A stretch of 64,000 bases of DNA, from contig CAKOWQ010000003.1 of NCBI GenBank assembly GCA_934122395.1, positions 186,299 to 250,298 of the forward strand, written 5' to 3'. The first letter of the stretch is position 1. Each line of letters starts with the position of its first letter. This document shows, one piece after another, positions 1-51,582 of this stretch. The DNA comes from an uncultured Bacilli bacterium. Its GTDB lineage: Bacteria > Bacillota_I > Bacilli_A > RF39 > UBA660. The translations under genes were made by a program, and so were the position numbers. The notes under the pieces are model-generated. The model worked only from the letters and a program-made list of their open reading frames with translations. It did not search any database and was not told the DNA's origin.

Positions 1-680
1 TATCTGATATACATGATTTGTTAGCACTTAAAATAATGGTAGATGAAGTAGAAAATTGCTATAGAACATTATATTTAATACATAATGAGTATCATCCAAT
101 AAACGATAAATTTAAAGATTATATTTGTAATCCAAAAACAAATATGTATCAAAGCTTACATACAACAGTTTTTGGACCTGATGATAGGTTAGTACAAACA
201 CAAATTAGAACTTTTGATATGGATAAAGTGGCATCCTTTGGTTTGACTGCATACTGGGATGAACAAAAGGGAAAAGCAAGAGATGCAATGCAAGATGATT
301 TAAAACAAAAATTTCAATTTTTCAAATCATTAACAGAAATTAATTCCATGTTCGGAGATAATCAACAATTTGTAAATCAAGTAAAGACTGAATTATTTGC
401 GGACAAAGTTTATGTTTATACCACAAAGGGTGATATAATAGAATTGCCAAAAGGGGCTACACCAATAGATTTTGCATATAAAATACATACTGATATAGGA
501 AATACAATGGTAGGAGTATTTGTAAATGATGAGTTTGTACCAATAGATTATGCATTAAGAAACAAAGATAGAGTTAGAATTGTCACTGATGAATTATCTT
601 ATGGACCAAGAGAAGATTGGATAGATAAAGCTCAAACAAGTTTAGCAAAAAGAAAAATAAGAGAATTTAATAAAAAGTAG
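1..680 (+). CDS. rel: RelA/SpoT-family (p)ppGpp synthetase/hydrolase, 5'-partial at the window edge; ends about 50 aa after the TGS domain, so it is C-terminally truncated relative to a canonical Rel
   Basis: Synthetase-domain motif YQSLHTTV; TGS domain (VYVYTTKGDIIELPKGATPIDFAYKIHTDIGN...VNDEFVPIDYALRNKDRVRIVT); stop at 678-680 within the helical linker; no ACT/zinc-finger region follows. Confidence 0.85.
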   Translation, partial: SDIHDLLALKIMVDEVENCYRTLYLIHNEYHPINDKFKDYICNPKTNMYQSLHTTVFGPDDRLVQTQIRTFDMDKVASFGLTAYWDEQKGKARDAMQDDLKQKFQFFKSLTEINSMFGDNQQFVNQVKTELFADKVYVYTTKGDIIELPKGATPIDFAYKIHTDIGNTMVGVFVNDEFVPIDYALRNKDRVRIVTDELSYGPREDWIDKAQTSLAKRKIREFNKK

Positions 681-23998: not shown

Positions 23999-24056
23999 TG
24001 ATATCTTTACATTTTGCCTATATATGTTATGCTTTATATATAATAAGGAGGATGAA

Positions 24057-24719
24057 ATGAAGAAGTTTAAATTAATTAGTATTGTATTAGCATTTATAGT
24101 ATTTGTTACTATGCCAGTTGTATATGCTCATGAAGTTGAATTAAGTAGTGATATTATTACTATTCCTACTACTAGCGAGTCTGCAATATGGAAAGGTACT
24201 AAAGTTCAAATTGCCAGTAGTTATGGAGAATATAATTTTTATTATCAATATGTAGTAATAACGGACGAACAATATAAAAATTATATAGGAATAAAAGAAG
24301 AACAAAAGAAATATGAAGCGGAGCATAAACCAGTAGCAGGTGCAACTAAAGAAGAACAAAATGCATATGAAGAAGAAATGAAAAACTATGAAAAATCAAA
24401 AGAAGGTATTTTACCATCATATGATGATAAAAAATGGATTGCATCTAGTGATAATACTGTACCAATAGATGAAGAAAAAAATACAGAACCTGCTAAATAT
24501 GTTTTATGGGTAAAAGTTGAAAGTAAAACAGGAACAGATAAAAATGCTAAATACAACGATTTAGTAGTTGTATATAACCCTACTACTAAGAGTGATGATA
24601 ATAGTAAAAGTGAAGAGGAAGCTAATCCAAGTACTAGTGATAATATAATACTATTTGCAGCAGGTGCAGCATTAATTGCTGGTGTTATGGTTGTAAGTTT
24701 TAAAAAATCAAGAGCTTAA
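24057..24719 (+). CDS. Secreted surface protein with C-terminal NPSTSDN sorting-like signal, TM and basic tail
   Basis: Signal peptide MKKFKLISIVLAFIVFVTMPVVYA; charged, Lys/Glu-rich middle; C-terminus ...NPSTSDNIILFAAGAALIAGVMVVSFKKSRA; AAGGAGGA RBS. Confidence 0.65.
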   Translation: MKKFKLISIVLAFIVFVTMPVVYAHEVELSSDIITIPTTSESAIWKGTKVQIASSYGEYNFYYQYVVITDEQYKNYIGIKEEQKKYEAEHKPVAGATKEEQNAYEEEMKNYEKSKEGILPSYDDKKWIASSDNTVPIDEEKNTEPAKYVLWVKVESKTGTDKNAKYNDLVVVYNPTTKSDDNSKSEEEANPSTSDNIILFAAGAALIAGVMVVSFKKSRA

Positions 24720-24723
24720 AATA

Positions 24724-24756
24724 AAATAAAGTAGCAAAAGCTACTTTATTTTTTTG
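24724..24756. terminator. Bidirectional rho-independent terminator between convergent genes
   Basis: AAATAAAGTAGCAAAAGCTACTTTATTTTTTT. Confidence 0.65.
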
Positions 24757-24865: not shown

Positions 24866-25534
24866 TTATAGTACTACTAATGCTAGTAAAATTAAATTAT
24901 AAATAACTCGTGCTATTATGTTTAATATAATATTATTGGTTTTGCTATATAGAAAAGATAAAAATAGTCCCACTAAATAGTAAGAAATAAAGAAAATATT
25001 TAGATTATTATATATCAAGTAAAATATTCCAATTAATATACTAGACACTAATATAAAGACTATATCATTGTTAAATGCTTTTCTTAAATTTTGTCTAAAT
25101 ATTAATTCTTCTATTATTGGTGAATATAGTATTAAGTAAAAACAAGATATAATAAAATTTTTACTGATACTATGTGTGATCGTTAAATCATTATTAGGAA
25201 TATTTATTTTTCTAGTAATTATAAAACTTAATATATTTACTGATAACATAATAAAGAATATTGCAAGGATAGATATTAGTATAATAATACTAGATTTTTT
25301 CTTATCTTTTATAGTTCTATCGATGCTTTTATCAATATCTTTTTTATAAACTAAATATATAATAAAAATATACAATGAATTTAGTATTATCTCATATACT
25401 GATATTAATTTATTATTATGAATACTTAATAGATTAAGAGGAACCTGTATAAAAGTAGACCATAATAAGTAACTAATAATAATTCCTAATGAAATAATAA
25501 ATTCTTTTCCATTTTTTTTATTTTTTAGTATCAC
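24866..25534 (-). CDS. CPBP (CAAX protease/Abi-family) intramembrane metalloprotease
   Basis: Multi-TM; EExxxR motif in SPIIEELIFRQNLRK. Confidence 0.75.
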   Translation of the reverse strand: MILKNKKNGKEFIISLGIIISYLLWSTFIQVPLNLLSIHNNKLISVYEIILNSLYIFIIYLVYKKDIDKSIDRTIKDKKKSSIIILISILAIFFIMLSVNILSFIITRKINIPNNDLTITHSISKNFIISCFYLILYSPIIEELIFRQNLRKAFNNDIVFILVSSILIGIFYLIYNNLNIFFISYYLVGLFLSFLYSKTNNIILNIIARVIYNLILLALVVL

Positions 25535-25757
25535 TTTTATACCTAGATTCTAATAGAAATATAGAAATTGTTTTAACCATTTTAAAAAACTTTTCATTAG
25601 GCCTCCTTTATCCTTATAGAAAGTTAACAAACAAGTAACTTTCTATTTTTAATTTTACCATAGAAAAGGTAAAAGTCAACATTTTGTTAACTTCGGCGTT
25701 GCTTATTGCAAGTAATCGAATAAAGTGTTATTATATAGGAACAAATCGGGGGATTTT

Positions 25758-26927
25758 ATGAGTGAAGTAACTTTAAAAGATAAGAAAGAAGTTCTTGTTA
25801 TGGCAAGTAAAGAAGAAAGGAAAGCTAAAATTTGTAAGGCTCTTATGGAAGCTAATTTTAGTCTTGTGTTTGATATCGCAAATATTCATAATTATTATGA
25901 TCAAGATGAATTAATTTCGGTAGGAACTCAAGGGCTTGTGAAAGCTGCTAATAGTTATGATACTACTAGAAATACACTGTTTAGGAATTATGCTTCAAAA
26001 TGCATTAGTAATGAGATTAATAATTTTTTAAAAAAGGCAAGTATAAGAAATGAAAATGTAAGTTTAGAAACACCAGTACAAACTAGTTATGGTAGTAAAA
26101 GATTAAAAGATATTATAATAGATGATGATCCATTTCGTAAAATATTCGATGAAGATGTTCATGCTTCTATTAGAAGTGCAATTACTTTATTACCATCACC
26201 TGAACGTGAAATAGTACAAATGCGATTTGGTTTTATTGATAATAAAATATTTAGTTTAAGAGATATTGCTAGTAAACTTCATTTATCATATGGTTATGTA
26301 AGTGAACTCTTAAATAATGGCGTAGAACTTGCTGCTATAATACTATCTAAAAAAGGAATAATAGATTTGAATAAGGACGAATATACTCTAGTTCACGATA
26401 AAAAAGGAAAAGTAAGAGCAATAAAAAAAGATAAGTTGTCAATATATAAGTATTTTAGCGATTATAGTGAAGATGAAATTAATTATGCATTATCAACTTT
26501 GACTCAAAGTGAAAGAGGATTGTTACCAAGTGCTTGTGGTGAAGCAATTCCTAATGAAATGTCTGAATTTATATATATTAGTCGAAAATTAAAAAAACGA
26601 CTTGATGCTTTTAGAGAAAATAAAGGTGCTGGTGCTGATAGGTTAACTACTGATGACTATAAAGAAATAGTTGATATATTAAATGGTGATAATATGCCAA
26701 AAAGAATTCAGGCGTTGGAAGAAAGCGAAAAAATTGTGGCATTATTAAGTTTGGGGTATGTAAATGGGAAGTATTTTTCAAGTGAATTTGTTTCAGATAC
26801 TTTAGGTATTCCACAAGAACGCGTTTTGGAAATAATTGATAAAACTGAAGAATTTGCTAGACAAGAGAGAAAAGAAGAAATGGAAAAATATCTAACCGGA
26901 ATAAAAACCAAAAGCAAAAGACCTTGA
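25758..26927 (+). CDS. Sigma-70-family sigma factor with about 185-aa C-terminal extension containing additional region-4-like HTH segments
   Basis: Region 2 (FRNYASKCISNEINNFL) and region 4 (PEREIVQMRFGFIDNKIFSLRDIASKLHLSYGYVSEL). Then LSTLTQSERGLL... and LEESEKIVALLSLGYVNGKYFSSEFVSDTLGIPQERVLEI repeats. Start MSEVTL with GGGGGA RBS. Confidence 0.65.
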   Translation: MSEVTLKDKKEVLVMASKEERKAKICKALMEANFSLVFDIANIHNYYDQDELISVGTQGLVKAANSYDTTRNTLFRNYASKCISNEINNFLKKASIRNENVSLETPVQTSYGSKRLKDIIIDDDPFRKIFDEDVHASIRSAITLLPSPEREIVQMRFGFIDNKIFSLRDIASKLHLSYGYVSELLNNGVELAAIILSKKGIIDLNKDEYTLVHDKKGKVRAIKKDKLSIYKYFSDYSEDEINYALSTLTQSERGLLPSACGEAIPNEMSEFIYISRKLKKRLDAFRENKGAGADRLTTDDYKEIVDILNGDNMPKRIQALEESEKIVALLSLGYVNGKYFSSEFVSDTLGIPQERVLEIIDKTEEFARQERKEEMEKYLTGIKTKSKRP

Positions 26928-26976
26928 ATTAAAACGCTAATTCATATATAATATAATAAGTATTGGAGGAAATATT

Positions 26977-48648: not shown

Positions 48649-48763
48649 TATATTCTCCTTATATTTATTTAACTAAATTATATTATTATTAATGCATTTT
48701 TACAAGGAAATGTTGAATACAAAAATGATTTTTAGTATAATAGTGATCAGTTTGGAGGTATAT

Positions 48764-50488
48764 ATGAATAATCAAAATATTTTCAATGAAATAAGAGAAA
48801 AAATTGATATAGTTGATTTAATCGGTGAATATGTACCTCTTGTTCAAAAAGGTCGTAATTACTTTGGAGTGTGTCCATTTCATAATGATACTAATCCATC
48901 AATGAGTGTTTCTCGTGAAAAACAAATATACAAGTGCTTTTCTTGTGGTGCTAGTGGTAATATCTTTACGTTTGTAAAAGATTATGAACATGTAGATATG
49001 AGAGATGCTTTAGAGATACTTGCAAATAAAGCAGGAGTAACACTAAGGAACAATAATATAGCTAGAAAAACTACTAAATATGATAAATTTTATGAAATAT
49101 ATGACCTTGCTAATAAGTTTTATCAAAATAATATAAATACTAAGGAAGGTATTAATGCTAAAGAGTATTTAAAAAATAGAAATATTAATGAAGATATTAT
49201 TAAAGAATTTGAAATAGGTCTATCTCTTGATAGTATGGATTCACTTACTAAATTATTAACTAAAAAGGGATATGATGACTTAACTTTAGATAAACTAGGA
49301 CTTTCTAGTAATAATCATGACTTATTTATTAATCGAATAATGGTTCCTATCCAAGATATGAATGGTAGAGTAGTAGCGTTTTCTGGACGTGTTTATAATA
49401 AGAAGAGTGACCATAAATATGTAAATACTAAAGAAACTGAAATATTTAAAAAAGGTACTATCCTTTATAATTATCATAGAGCTAAGGAAGAAGCACGTCG
49501 TAATAAATATGTAATTATAATGGAAGGCTATATGGACGTATTTAGAGCATCATCGGTGGGATTTAAAAACGTTGTAGCAATAATGGGAACAGCTTTAACG
49601 ATAGATCAAACTAATTTGGTTAAAAAATTATCTAATAATGTCTATTTATGTTTAGATGGTGATAATCCCGGCCAAAAGGCTATGTTATCAGTTGGTGCTG
49701 AGCTTGAAAAAGCAGGAGTTAATGTAAAAATAGTACTTCTTACGAATGATGAGGATCCTGATACATATATATTAAAGTATGGAAAAGAAAAATTTAGTAA
49801 TTTAATTGATAGTGCTATTAGTTTCAGTGACTTTAAGTTACAAGCATTAAAAAAGGGGGTTAACTTTAATAGTGATTTGGAATTATCACATTATGTTAAC
49901 TCTGTAATTAAGGAAGCTAGTTTAATTGATGACGAGATAAGAAGGGAAATAATACTAAAAAAACTTGCATTAGAAGTGAATTTGAGTTATAATACCCTAG
50001 AAAAAAGGTTGAATGAGTATTTAGAAAAAAGAAAGCCAAAAGATGTAATCATAAAAGAAGTTGTGCCAACTAATAAATTATCTAGATATGATAAAGCAGT
50101 TTATGGAATGATTTATGCTACTTTGATGGATAAGAAATATTTAAAAAGATTTGAAGATGAATCACTATATTTTGTTAATCAAAAAGCTAGATACTTATTG
50201 ATGGAAATTGAATATTATTATAAGAAATTTGGTAACATACAAATAGCGGACTTTTATACTTATTTAATGGACAAAGAAGAACTCTTAGAACTATATAATA
50301 ATATTATTAACTATGTTGATAGTAATAGTATTAGCGATGAAGCAGTTACTGATTTTATGAATGTCATTAGGTCATATAATATGAGGCTAGAGATTAAACG
50401 CCTAACTGATAAATTGAGAAACGAGACGGATGAGTTGGAAAAATCAAAAATTGCTGAGGAGATTAGGTTACTAAGAATAGGGGAGTGA
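48764..50488 (+). CDS. dnaG: DNA primase
   Basis: Zinc-binding [19 protein letters not shown] (EGYMDV...DGDNPG); GGAGG RBS at [19 protein letters not shown]. Confidence 0.9.
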
Positions 50489-50493
50489 ATACA

Positions 50494-51582
50494 GTGGTCG
50501 GAGAAATAAAAACAATAGAAGATAGAAAAAAATCTTTATTAAAGTTTGGAAAAGAAAACGGATATGTCACTTATGAAAAATTAGCAGAAGAATTAAAAGG
50601 ATTAGATGTTGATAGTGATACACTAGATGATATCTATAATATGTTAGTAGAAAATAATATTGAGATTATGTCTGATACAACAGATAATAGTGAAGAAGAT
50701 GAAGATCCTTCTAATTTAGTAGTAGAAGATTTGACCTTAACTAAAGATATTAAAATTAATGATCCAGTACGTATGTACTTAAAAGAAATCGGTCGTATTA
50801 ACTTACTTACAACTGATGAGGAATTTGAATATGCTCGTCTTGCTGAACAAGGCGATGAATACGCTAAAAAGATGCTAGCAGAATCTAACTTACGTTTAGT
50901 AGTATCTATTGCTAAAAGGTATGTAGGTCGTGGTATGTTATTTTTAGACTTGATTCAAGAAGGTAATATTGGACTTATGAAAGCTGTAGATAAATATGAT
51001 CCTGATAAAGGATTCAAGTTTTCTACTTATGCAACATGGTGGATACGTCAAGCAATAACAAGAGCTATAGCAGACCAAGCAAGAACAATACGTGTTCCTG
51101 TTCATATGGTTGAAACTATTAATAAACTTGCAAGGGCACAACGTCAATTAACTCAAGAATTGAATCGTGAACCAACCGAAGAAGAACTTGCAAAAAAATT
51201 AAATATAACAGTAGATAAAGTAAGAGAAGTATATAAAATATCTCAAGATCCTGTATCTCTTGAAACACCTATTGGTGAAGAGGATGATTCTCATTTAGGA
51301 GATTTCATTAAGGATGAGAGAACAATGTCTCCAGAAGAGTATGCAACTGTAGAAATGTTAAAAGAAGAATTAGCAAATGTTTTATTAACTTTAACAGATA
51401 GAGAAGAAAAAGTATTACGTCTTCGTTTTGGACTTGATGATGGACAATGCAGAACACTTGAAGAAGTTGGACAGATTTTTGGTGTAACTAGAGAAAGAAT
51501 TCGTCAAATTGAAGCTAAAGCGCTAAGAAAATTAAGACATCCATCAAGATCTAGAAAATTAAAAGACTTCTTAATAGATTAA
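50494..51582 (+). CDS. sigA: Primary sigma factor (RpoD/SigA)
   Basis: Regions 1.2, 2 ([37 protein letters not shown]), 3 and 4; GTG start (50485 or 50494) overlapping/abutting the dnaG stop. Confidence 0.9.

Follow-up and report, generated by a model that had tools for sequence, protein, structure and literature searches.

A predicted accessory sigma factor with a region-4-derived C-terminal tail in an uncultured Bacilli bacterium

The sigma-70-family gene analysed here lies in a 64,000-nucleotide stretch of DNA from an uncultured Bacilli bacterium (hereafter the window). It encodes a putative accessory alternative sigma factor, and the C-terminal ~185 residues of this protein consist of two modules, A and B, which are both descended from sigma region 4. 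The sigma2-sigma4 core is SigE/SigK-like, at scores far under the ortholog cutoffs. Judged by its modules, the protein is a minimal (one A plus one B) and rather degenerate member of a lineage-restricted repeat family. We found the tail to have no demonstrable link to the neighbouring CPBP gene. An accessory sigma factor whose region-4-derived tail would act as a region-4 mimic, with the CPBP gene as a separate matter, is our best overall explanation, and we give it about an even chance of being right.

The mechanically called ORF of the sigma gene starts at a GTG (25725..26927, plus strand, 400 aa). Its likely start is the ATG at 25758, which is preceded by GGGGG and lies at the position used as start in all three full-length homologs, resulting in a protein of 389 aa (Table 1). 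Membership in the sigma-70 family follows from regions 2 and 4 both scoring above curated thresholds. Pfam Sigma70_r2 (PF04542) matched with 26.9 bits (cutoff 24) and Sigma70_r4 (PF04545) with 29 bits (cutoff 24.1, residues 155-199 of the 400-aa form), while the NCBIfam superfamily model TIGR02937 reached 57.2 bits (cutoff 42.9). Both Pfam domains fall inside the first ~200 residues and ~185 residues remain C-terminal to them, just as an earlier sequence-only reading of this DNA had described. For residues 6-185, the best-scoring named families in NCBIfam were of the SigE/SigK type, and region 2 carries the SigE/K-type signature NYASKCISNEINNFLKK. The protein is an equivalog of neither: it scored 100 bits against the SigE model NF006158 (cutoff 339), and 98 and 88 bits against the SigK models NF004471 and TIGR02846 (cutoffs 252 and 299). 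A pro-sequence is absent, as the SigE match begins at profile position 41, which corresponds to residue 6 when counted from the ATG and to residue 17 when counted from the GTG. The recognition segment of the canonical region 4, HLSYGYVSELLNN, contains no basic residue. PADLOC returned only a generic region-2 match to MzaA and no sign of a defence system, and an Rfam search over the whole window gave no match.

Table 1. Features of the sigma locus, in window coordinates; promoters and modules are predictions
Feature	Position	Strand	Remarks
CPBP/Rce1-like membrane protein	24866..25534	-	EExxxR kept; motif-2 His = Tyr, motif-3 His = Arg
Mini-ORF MKSFLKWLKQFLYFY	25550..25597	-	15 aa; RBS GGAGG 25602-25606; directly upstream of CPBP gene
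Perfect 11-bp inverted repeat, 9-nt loop	25616..25646	-	between minus-strand promoter and mini-ORF RBS
Predicted SigmaA-type promoter TTGACT-N16-TAAAAT (with TG), mini-ORF/CPBP operon	25652..25679	-	hexamers invariant in 4 lineages
Predicted SigmaA-type promoter TTGCAA-N17-TATTAT, upstream TG, sigma gene	25706..25734	+	conserved in L001
Sigma-70-family gene	25758..26927	+	389 aa; SigE/SigK-like, ortholog of neither; carries A+B tail
Sigma region 2	25809..26048	+	residues ~18-97; Pfam r2; helices 18-97 in AF2 model
Canonical sigma region 4	26130..26351	+	residues ~125-198; Pfam r4; B-HMM match at 136-191
Module A	26433..26627	+	residues ~226-290; A-HMM 42 bits; hhalign vs region 4; PDB matches of A profile
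Module B	26643..26915	+	residues ~296-386; B-HMM 71 bits; hhalign; pLDDT 85-94; PDB matches to region 4
Predicted trigger-factor promoter TTGAAT-N17-TATAAT	26924..26952	+	-35 hexamer overlaps sigma stop codon

Searches of Pfam, NCBIfam and PHROGs with the tail alone gave no match. Profile comparison with sigma region 4, a check that the sequence-only reading had suggested, matched both modules: hhalign gave a probability of 98.5% for module B (E 2.5e-15) and of 95.6% for module A (E 1.2e-8). An HMM built from the terminal module of the relatives matched residues 299-375 of the tail (71 bits) and also the canonical region 4 at residues 136-191 (51 bits), and the A-HMM matched residues 228-269 (42 bits). 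When the tail alone was compared with PDB sequences by phmmer, SigA region 4 accounted for six of the nine matches, including the top three, all of them weak (E 0.07-0.6). The best PDB matches of the A profile were SigA region 4 as well. The phmmer, B-HMM and hhalign matches are the reason why we take the likeness of the two tail segments to region 4, which had been noticed at LTQSERGLL (residues 248-256) and LEESEK...EEME (residues 319-375), to be beyond chance.

In the family, module A retains helix 4.1 and an LRYG-type turn; its second and third helix-turn-helix (HTH) helices are not recognisable, and its C-terminal end is a basic helix (consensus KIKKLL). Module B retains the whole region-4-like HTH plus a long C-terminal helix and forms the terminal cap. 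At the sites of the A consensus (turn LRYGxDLxNP, helix FYxxLIPKIKxxL) the window protein has LLPSACGEAIPN and FIYISRKLKKRL, with loss of the turn but not of the basic helix. With the RYGEDL turn of the family gone and 42 bits compared to the typical 60-100, its module A is degenerate.

AF2 modelling of the window sigma from a 49-sequence alignment resulted in a pLDDT of 75 and a pTM of 0.30 (a 5-sequence alignment gave a pLDDT of 47 only). Module B was the best-predicted part (pLDDT 85-94), and the tail was modelled as soluble helices only. At this pTM the packing between domains is unreadable and no confident docking of A or B onto the core was seen, so an AlphaFold model, also proposed earlier as a check, informs on the fold of module B and not on the arrangement of the domains. 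Foldseek comparison of the whole model with the PDB returned sigma factors only and nothing specific to the tail.

We searched 1.84e9 representative proteins (E<1e-3) and obtained 269 relatives. Their architecture can be written as a short sigma, a primary-like sigma or nothing, followed by 0-19 copies of A, near-identical within arrays, and one terminal B. Among the best 151 of the 269, 56 combine a short sigma with A/B and 36 a primary-like sigma with A/B, while 59 have no sigma region 4 before the repeats; nearly all of the 151 terminate in exactly one B. The order of sigma core, A and terminal B was as in the window in 146 of the 151 top representatives, and the stand-alone A-B genes were confirmed to be real. 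The window sigma itself has what defines the family, at least one A and then a terminal B, C-terminal to any sigma core. Nearly all of the 78 GTDB loci that encode family members belong to gut metagenome-assembled genomes (MAGs) of uncultured Bacilli/Tenericutes, and the evidence for the family is computational throughout and comes from MAGs. Pfam, NCBIfam and PHROGs hold no model specific for A or B, we found no published work on the repeats, and a tblastn search of phage genomes with an A+B protein found nothing. The family is apparently undescribed, and the suspicion that such a tail is unusual was well founded.

What the tail might do is suggested by its charge. In the 13-residue recognition segment, the mean charge was +1.83 among 88 canonical region 4s versus -1.23 among 150 terminal B modules. 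At the position that holds Arg or Tyr in canonical region 4, which we take to be the equivalent of an Arg by which SigA contacts the -35 element, 83% of the B modules have E or D. From this change of the recognition helix from basic to acidic we infer a protein-contact or regulatory role and not a second -35 reader. The tail would then be a mimic of region 4 and not a second promoter-reading head, a proposal that we hold at slightly under an even chance. According to it, the -35-reading residues of region 4 would have been replaced by Glu/Asp in module B, and the tail could dock where region 4 does on RNA polymerase, for example at the beta-flap, or else bind a true region 4 or other proteins with A/B modules. 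Such docking might tune, tether or auto-inhibit the window sigma, and the effect of stand-alone A(n)-B proteins would be in trans. Outside this mechanism lies the CPBP-like gene, in a separate operon with a conserved gene for a 15-aa aromatic peptide.

A wider form of the proposal, tentative and in our judgement rather doubtful, is that the A/B modules constitute a network of region-4 mimics that regulate RNA polymerase in cis and in trans and replace classical anti-sigma factors. Within one clade of uncultured gut Bacilli with reduced genomes (RF39/RFN20/ML615J-28-like), region 4 would have been duplicated and remodelled into an amplifiable A (0-19 copies) and a charge-reversed cap B. Placed on primary-like and alternative sigmas and on free proteins, such mimics could compete for the beta-flap or mask the true region 4. 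The window sigma would be a minimal, fast-evolving and strain-variable member of this network.

The sequence-only reading had instead considered extra DNA-binding modules. In that case the sigma would recognise an extended promoter whose upstream sites are read by A and/or B as additional heads, and would thereby carry its own activator, in a genome with few transcription factors. In favour of this reading, B keeps the full region-4 HTH fold, A terminates in the basic KIKKLL-type helix, and in the window protein the recognition helix of B keeps one Arg (GIPQERVLEIIDK) where that of the canonical region 4 has no basic residue. DNA reading itself is nonetheless unlikely, given that the recognition segment of B is acidic family-wide, with Glu/Asp where canonical region 4 has Arg/Gln, that A has no recognisable second and third HTH helix and that 0-19 near-identical copies of A are hard to square with a fixed promoter geometry. 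Against the region-4-mimic reading, it may be said that an acidic helix is also compatible with DNA or RNA binding through another surface.

The evolution of the gene bears on a further alternative. The sigma gene occurs in part of its lineage only, as an indel of ~1.24 kb flanked by the CPBP operon and the trigger-factor gene tig; the promoter-like site of the latter marks the right edge of the indel. No other gene of the locus diverges as fast as the sigma gene (dN 0.33 versus 0-0.11 for the neighbours), and between close strains, too, it is the most diverged one. Compared with the ortholog at the related locus L001, amino-acid identity is 55% with an intact ORF, and dN/dS is 0.48 overall, 0.33 in the tail and 0.68 in the core. 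Since the frame is intact and these ratios are 0.48 and, in the tail, 0.33, the gene appears to be still under selection. The tail might still be a relic of a duplication within the gene or between paralogs, nearly or entirely devoid of function and carried by an accessory, decaying paralog. The rapid divergence, the core dN/dS of 0.68, the degenerate A, the canonical region 4 devoid of basic residues and the sister lineages that have no sigma gene would all fit such a relic. We nevertheless regard it as distinctly unlikely: the frame has remained open in three lineages down to 55% identity at dN/dS<1, the tail is under stronger constraint than the core, B is both the best-predicted part of the model and a 71-bit match to the family HMM, and the architecture is kept in hundreds of proteins. 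As regards the region-4-mimic reading, fast divergence and a degenerate A may indicate relaxed constraint on a decaying extension.

The CPBP gene is divergent from the sigma gene. Its product matched Pfam PF02517 (Rce1-like/CPBP) with 47.5 bits (cutoff 22.4) and has the motif-1 sequence IEELIFR (EExxxR), so the sequence-only description of a CPBP/Abi protein with EExxxR holds. That description had overlooked that the catalytic histidines of motif 2 (FxxxH) and motif 3 (HxxxN/D) are missing. The window clade reads IGIFYLIY (H to Y) and ARVIYN (H to R; K in P0187) at these sites, versus FGLIHV/FGYLHV and HAFHN/HMMHN in the distant homologs P0188 and P0189. NCBIfam gave a weak MroQ match for the CPBP protein, and a phmmer comparison with PDB sequences found none. 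L001 and L085 encode the identical mini-ORF peptide, the nucleotide changes being all synonymous, and in L087 a stop codon interrupts it.

The intergenic region is 95% identical between the window and L001. We withdrew an initial view of this value as extraordinary, since the neighbouring genes are 85-95% identical; the argument for constraint rests on comparison with the synonymous divergence (pS ~0.35) and with the more distant L085 and L087. The sigma gene has its own predicted sigmaA-type promoter, and that of the CPBP operon is kept where the sigma gene is absent. The 11-bp inverted repeat probably folds into a stem-loop at the transcript's 5' end. Its interpretation as an intrinsic terminator was dropped, because no upstream plus-strand gene ends there; the location just downstream of the conserved minus-strand promoter also counted against it.

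In three related contigs (L085, L087 and L088), the orthologous CPBP gene with its mini-ORF is directly divergent from tig, with no sigma gene in between. None of the 78 family loci has a CPBP neighbour by phmmer, neighbour clustering at these loci found no recurrent partner save other sigma paralogs, and no anti-sigma family matched among the neighbours in the window. The idea that sigma and CPBP form a self-contained signalling unit, with the CPBP controlling the sigma via its tail by regulated intramembrane proteolysis or by processing of a peptide, is largely refuted by the presence/absence pattern, and conservation of the pair across genomes, to which that idea had pointed, was not found. 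It is very improbable, even though in the window, L082/L083 and L001/L002 the two genes sit side by side in divergent orientation, CPBP relatives such as MroQ process signalling peptides and a conserved mini-ORF lies between the two genes: adjacency is confined to close relatives (neighbour genes 85-95% identical in DNA), both CPBP histidine motifs are lost, the CPBP operon promoter persists without the sigma, and the sigma apparently has no transmembrane segment and has no anti-sigma gene beside it.

Few bacterial regulators have been studied as thoroughly as sigma factors. Here, copies of the promoter-reading domain itself appear to have lost the residues that read DNA and to have multiplied to as many as 19, on housekeeping-like sigmas, alternative sigmas and free-standing proteins of poorly known uncultured gut bacteria. 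Should these modules make contact with RNA polymerase or with other sigmas, they would represent a new control of transcription initiation and a handle on gene regulation in reduced genomes. They are almost invisible to current domain libraries, which leaves the proteins mislabelled or unlabelled. The results also correct a tempting but wrong guilt-by-association link between sigma and CPBP, the latter being paired instead with a conserved gene for a 15-aa peptide.

CPBP relatives include MroQ, bacteriocin-immunity Abi proteins and the catalytically inactive SpdC. Like them, the window CPBP matches PF02517, keeps EExxxR and adjoins a short peptide gene; it differs in that both histidines are replaced, the 15-aa peptide has no leader and no link to the sigma is supported. 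With SigE and SigK, group 3 sporulation sigmas of Bacillota, the window sigma shares YASxCIxNEI in region 2.3/2.4 and an SYxYVS-type region-4 helix, motifs that we presume to be those of B. subtilis sigmaE/sigmaK. The N-terminal pro-sequence of SigE and SigK is removed by SpoIIGA or SpoIVFB. In contrast, the window sigma reaches only 100 and 98 bits (cutoffs 339 and 252), has no pro-sequence and lies outside a SpoIIGA or SpoIVFB context, and its 185-aa tail is missing in sigmaE and sigmaK. Duplication of a core domain within one protein is a rare, non-canonical pattern among cyanobacterial sigmas (PMC11119718). Those belong to a different phylum, and A/B repeats, arrays of up to 19 and a charge-reversed cap are absent from that paper (PMC11119718). 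Sigma70 region 1.1, Rsd and T4 AsiA are only functional analogies to the window tail, in which a paralog of region 4 is joined to the sigma. In region 1.1 auto-inhibition and with Rsd and AsiA, acidic or region-4-directed modules change promoter use without DNA reading. To our knowledge, C-terminal extensions of sigma factors are confined to ECF sigmas and built from unrelated sensor domains. Such domains, carried by group 4 sigmas, are of the SnoaL-like, TPR or zinc-binding type; in ECF41 and ECF42 the fused extension, with no separate anti-sigma gene, is thought to regulate in cis. Like ECF41 and ECF42, the window sigma carries an additional domain at its C terminus and is not accompanied by a separate anti-sigma gene. 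However, the A/B extension is made of region-4 paralogs that can be amplified in tandem, sit on sigmas of the group 1-like and group 3-like kinds and exist as stand-alone proteins too.

The window has a G+C content of ~26%, and nearly every gene lies on the + strand; an Rfam search over the 64 kb returned nothing at gathering score (no tRNA, rRNA, riboswitch or T-box). Since ATG 25758 of the sigma open reading frame is preceded by GGGGG and is the start of all three full-length homologues (MSEV.../MEKG...), the sigma protein is most likely 389 aa long. Pfam Sigma70_r2 and Sigma70_r4 scored barely over their cutoffs, both within residues 1 to ~200. The protein had been correctly described from its sequence as a sigma factor with regions 2 and 4 at the front, followed by a long tail. 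The nearest NCBIfam models to the core were SigE and SigK, far under the equivalog cutoffs (100 bits versus 339 and 98 versus 252). The match starts at profile position 41, indicating that no pro-sequence is present. Because the primary sigma factor, encoded in a normal dnaG-rpoD pair, lacks the extension described below, this extension is restricted to the accessory sigma factor in the window's genome.

We then analysed the tail by several approaches. Against PDB sequences, a tail-only query (196 aa) gave weak matches (E 0.07-0.6), six of nine of which, including the top three, were to SigA region 4. From relatives found by exhaustive phmmer search, two HMMs were built, one for module A (~65 aa, consensus TIYEYFSDYSKEEIDEAISKLSEEEKELLKLRYGEDLDNPV...KKFYNILIPKIKKLL) and one for module B (~78 aa, consensus EDYIKILELLKTPEF...LSEKEKIIISLRFGYIDGKYFSLEEIAKFLGISEEEVREIIKKALKKYKENLNKFLD); the latter also matched the canonical region 4 of the window protein, that is, region 4 of its core. 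When each module was compared with the canonical region 4 of the same family, profile against profile, B matched across the entire helix-turn-helix (probability 98.5%, E 2.5e-15), while A matched with a probability of 95.6% (E 1.2e-8), confidently over helix 4.1 and the LRYG turn. The best PDB matches of the A profile were Firmicute SigA region 4 (E ~1e-3), and just three of 25 individual A modules reached Pfam Sigma70_r4 at E<0.01. An AF2 model of the sigma factor (49-sequence alignment; pLDDT 75) had a pTM of 0.30, at which domain packing is unreadable. Its best-predicted part was B (pLDDT 85-94), with helices H322-331, H342-349 and H353-386 mirroring H149-157, H167-174 and H178-198 of region 4. 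A and B are thus both region-4-derived.

Feature coordinates (window positions unless marked as residues of the sigma protein)
Feature	Position	Strand	Remark
231-aa protein gene	24024-24719	+	
Terminator-like hairpin, 13-bp stem	24723-24752		after the 231-aa protein gene; common to the convergent CPBP gene
CPBP gene	24866-25534	-	divergent from sigma gene
Mini-ORF, 15 codons	25597-25550	-	encodes MKSFLKWLKQFLYFY; directly upstream of CPBP gene
Ribosome-binding site GGAGG	25602-25606	-	mini-ORF
Perfect inverted repeat, 11 bp, 9-nt loop	25616-25646	-	between promoter-like site and mini-ORF ribosome-binding site
Promoter-like site TTGACT-N16-TAAAAT, upstream TG	25679-25652	-	invariant in four lineages
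~1.24-kb indel	~25684-26922		right of minus-strand -35 element to sigma stop codon
Sigma open reading frame	25725-26927	+	400 aa counted from GTG
Canonical region 4	residues 136-191	+	
Module A	residues ~228-290	+	A HMM
Module B	residues 299-375	+	B HMM
dnaG-rpoD pair	48692-51582	+	primary sigma 365 aa, regions 1.1-4

The phmmer search, covering 1.84 billion representative proteins, yielded 269 relatives at E<1e-3, in many of which up to 12 stretches matched. Domain order was strikingly consistent among the best 151 of these: 56 consisted of a short sigma factor (region 4 at ~150-215) followed by 1-18 copies of A and then B, and 36 carried 1-14 copies of A plus B behind a primary-like sigma factor (regions 1.2-4, with region 4 at ~400-465). 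The remaining 59 had no sigma region 4 before the repeats and were mostly made up of 0-19 copies of A plus B. Such stand-alone A-B genes are genuine and not split-off pieces of sigma genes (loci L054 and L057). Nearly all 151 ended in exactly one B, and sigma-A-B, as in the window, was the commonest short form. Several A copies within P0006, a family protein of 1347 aa, are nearly identical, suggesting that they were amplified in tandem, and changed in number, recently. When one genome was scanned for each GTDB species, 78 family loci were detected, nearly all in metagenome-assembled genomes from the guts of human, rabbit, ruminant and chicken that belong to uncultured "Bacilli", "Tenericutes" or Erysipelotrichaceae, and including Candidatus Faecisoma (Mycoplasmatota incertae sedis). 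The genomes scanned leave out the window's own species, whose close relatives come from gut metagenomes. Within this sizeable family of uncultured gut Bacilli, the window sigma factor is the minimal member.

To compare the 13-residue recognition segment, canonical region 4s were aligned to one HMM together with the terminal B modules of the same proteins. Canonical region 4 (n=88) had a mean net charge of +1.83 and the consensus (N/G)-I-S-R-E-R-I-(S/R)-Q-I-E-x-K, versus -1.23 and G-I-E-E-E-E-V-I-E-I-T-K-K for terminal B (n=150). An Arg/Tyr position of canonical region 4, which we take to be the -35-contacting Arg of SigA, was Glu/Asp in 83% of terminal B modules. These shifts indicate that B kept the fold, while its DNA-reading face was lost and reversed. 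Since, in addition, A has no recognisable second half of the helix-turn-helix, we infer that the tail serves for contact with proteins, as a mimic of region 4, and does not read the -35 element a second time. It might dock at region 4's site on RNA polymerase, at a genuine region 4 or at other A/B proteins, and would act in cis in the window sigma factor and in trans in stand-alone A/B proteins. The window's B retains one Arg in the recognition segment (GIPQERVLEIIDK). The canonical region 4 of the same protein has zero basic residues there (HLSYGYVSELLNN), so promoter recognition by this sigma factor may be unusual in any case.

The sequence-only reading had proposed that the sigma factor may form a self-contained regulatory unit with the divergent CPBP gene. 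The gene itself was correctly described (Rce1-like/CPBP, 47.5 bits in Pfam; EELIFR as EExxxR motif). In an alignment with distant homologues retaining FxxxH and HxxxN, its clade kept EExxxR and had both conserved histidines replaced, by Tyr in motif 2 and Arg/Lys in motif 3. These replacements make a canonical protease mechanism doubtful, and the protein may have become a pseudo-protease or altered its activity. The pairing is not supported across genomes: CPBP occurs without the sigma gene in three contigs of relatives (L085, L087 and L088), and none of the 78 family loci adjoins a CPBP homologue. The only recurrent neighbours of these loci were further sigma paralogues, with which family members frequently stand in tandem (24 neighbour genes in 11 loci, including L051, L063, L040, L013 and L060). 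On the other side of the CPBP gene lies a gene for a 231-aa protein, syntenic in all relatives. This protein is hydrophobic in an N-terminal segment and in an anchor-like tail at the C terminus, and gave a weak LPXTG-anchor match (E 0.23).

In L085, in the identically arranged L088 and in L087, the trigger factor gene (tig) itself is divergent from the CPBP gene, with no sigma gene in between. Between tig and the CPBP operon, the sigma gene and its promoter show a presence/absence polymorphism (L085 520-600; L087 3753-3850; also L088). The TGA that ends the sigma gene shares bases with the -35 hexamer of the conserved tig promoter (TTGAAT-N17-TATAAT), and a terminator-like site was not detected between sigma gene and tig. 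Compared with the related species in L001, neighbouring genes showed 85-95% DNA identity, dropping to 66-78% exactly across the sigma gene; the edges of the diverged stretch coincided with the gene boundaries against both L001 and the close strain L082. Nei-Gojobori estimates against L001 gave dN 0.33, dS 0.68 and dN/dS 0.48 for the whole gene (core: 0.33, 0.49 and 0.68; tail: 0.32, 0.98 and 0.33), versus dN 0-0.11, dS 0.36-0.54 and dN/dS 0-0.31 for U32, HD, GreA, a hypothetical protein and CPBP. Against L082, the sigma gene was again the most diverged, with the top values in the region (dS 0.158, dN 0.033). It is therefore an accessory gene and the fastest-diverging one of the locus, and its intact frame and dN/dS<1 show that it is not dead. 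With three alleles compared, recombination, relaxed constraint or diversifying selection may account for the divergence.

Upstream of the CPBP gene, the MKSFLKWLKQFLYFY peptide of the mini-ORF was unchanged in L001, whose mini-ORF has a single synonymous change, and in L085, whose mini-ORF has four and ends in another stop codon; the CPBP protein of L085 is only 57% identical. Besides these, the mini-ORF occurred in one further metagenome contig only, L088, in the same CPBP context. In L087 (3920-4501), a premature stop in the mini-ORF (MKSLLKWLK*) together with a CPBP gene truncated to 166 aa suggests that both are decaying jointly. The inverted repeat, whose stem is mostly retained and whose loop varies in L085, is probably a stem-loop at the mRNA 5' end or an operator. 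A distant CPBP homologue without the histidines (L086 259-918; 33% identical), located in an unrelated genomic context (obg, fmt), is likewise preceded by a short aromatic mini-ORF, MWNWFWRAMLKWY (118-159), with a strong ribosome-binding site. Mini-ORF and CPBP gene thus resemble a small-peptide/CPBP pair that might serve immunity, handling or signalling, and this pair is independent of the sigma factor.

That a sigma factor with such a tail is unusual was confirmed. Family proteins bear no assigned name in the source databases, neither Pfam, NCBIfam nor PHROG contains a model specific for A or B, and a literature search found no A/B-type repeat. The window protein is best filed as a sigma-70-family factor with an apparently undescribed, region-4-derived A/B extension. 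The A-module N-terminal motif of the family protein P0009 (residues 181-202) weakly matched NF045770 (NCBIfam, E 2e-4, under cutoff), a model of the C-terminal domain of Mycoplasma MG284/MPN403 family proteins, which may be a distant relative in cultured Mollicutes. The nearest parallel in the literature is the rare duplication of core domains in cyanobacterial sigma factors (PMC11119718).
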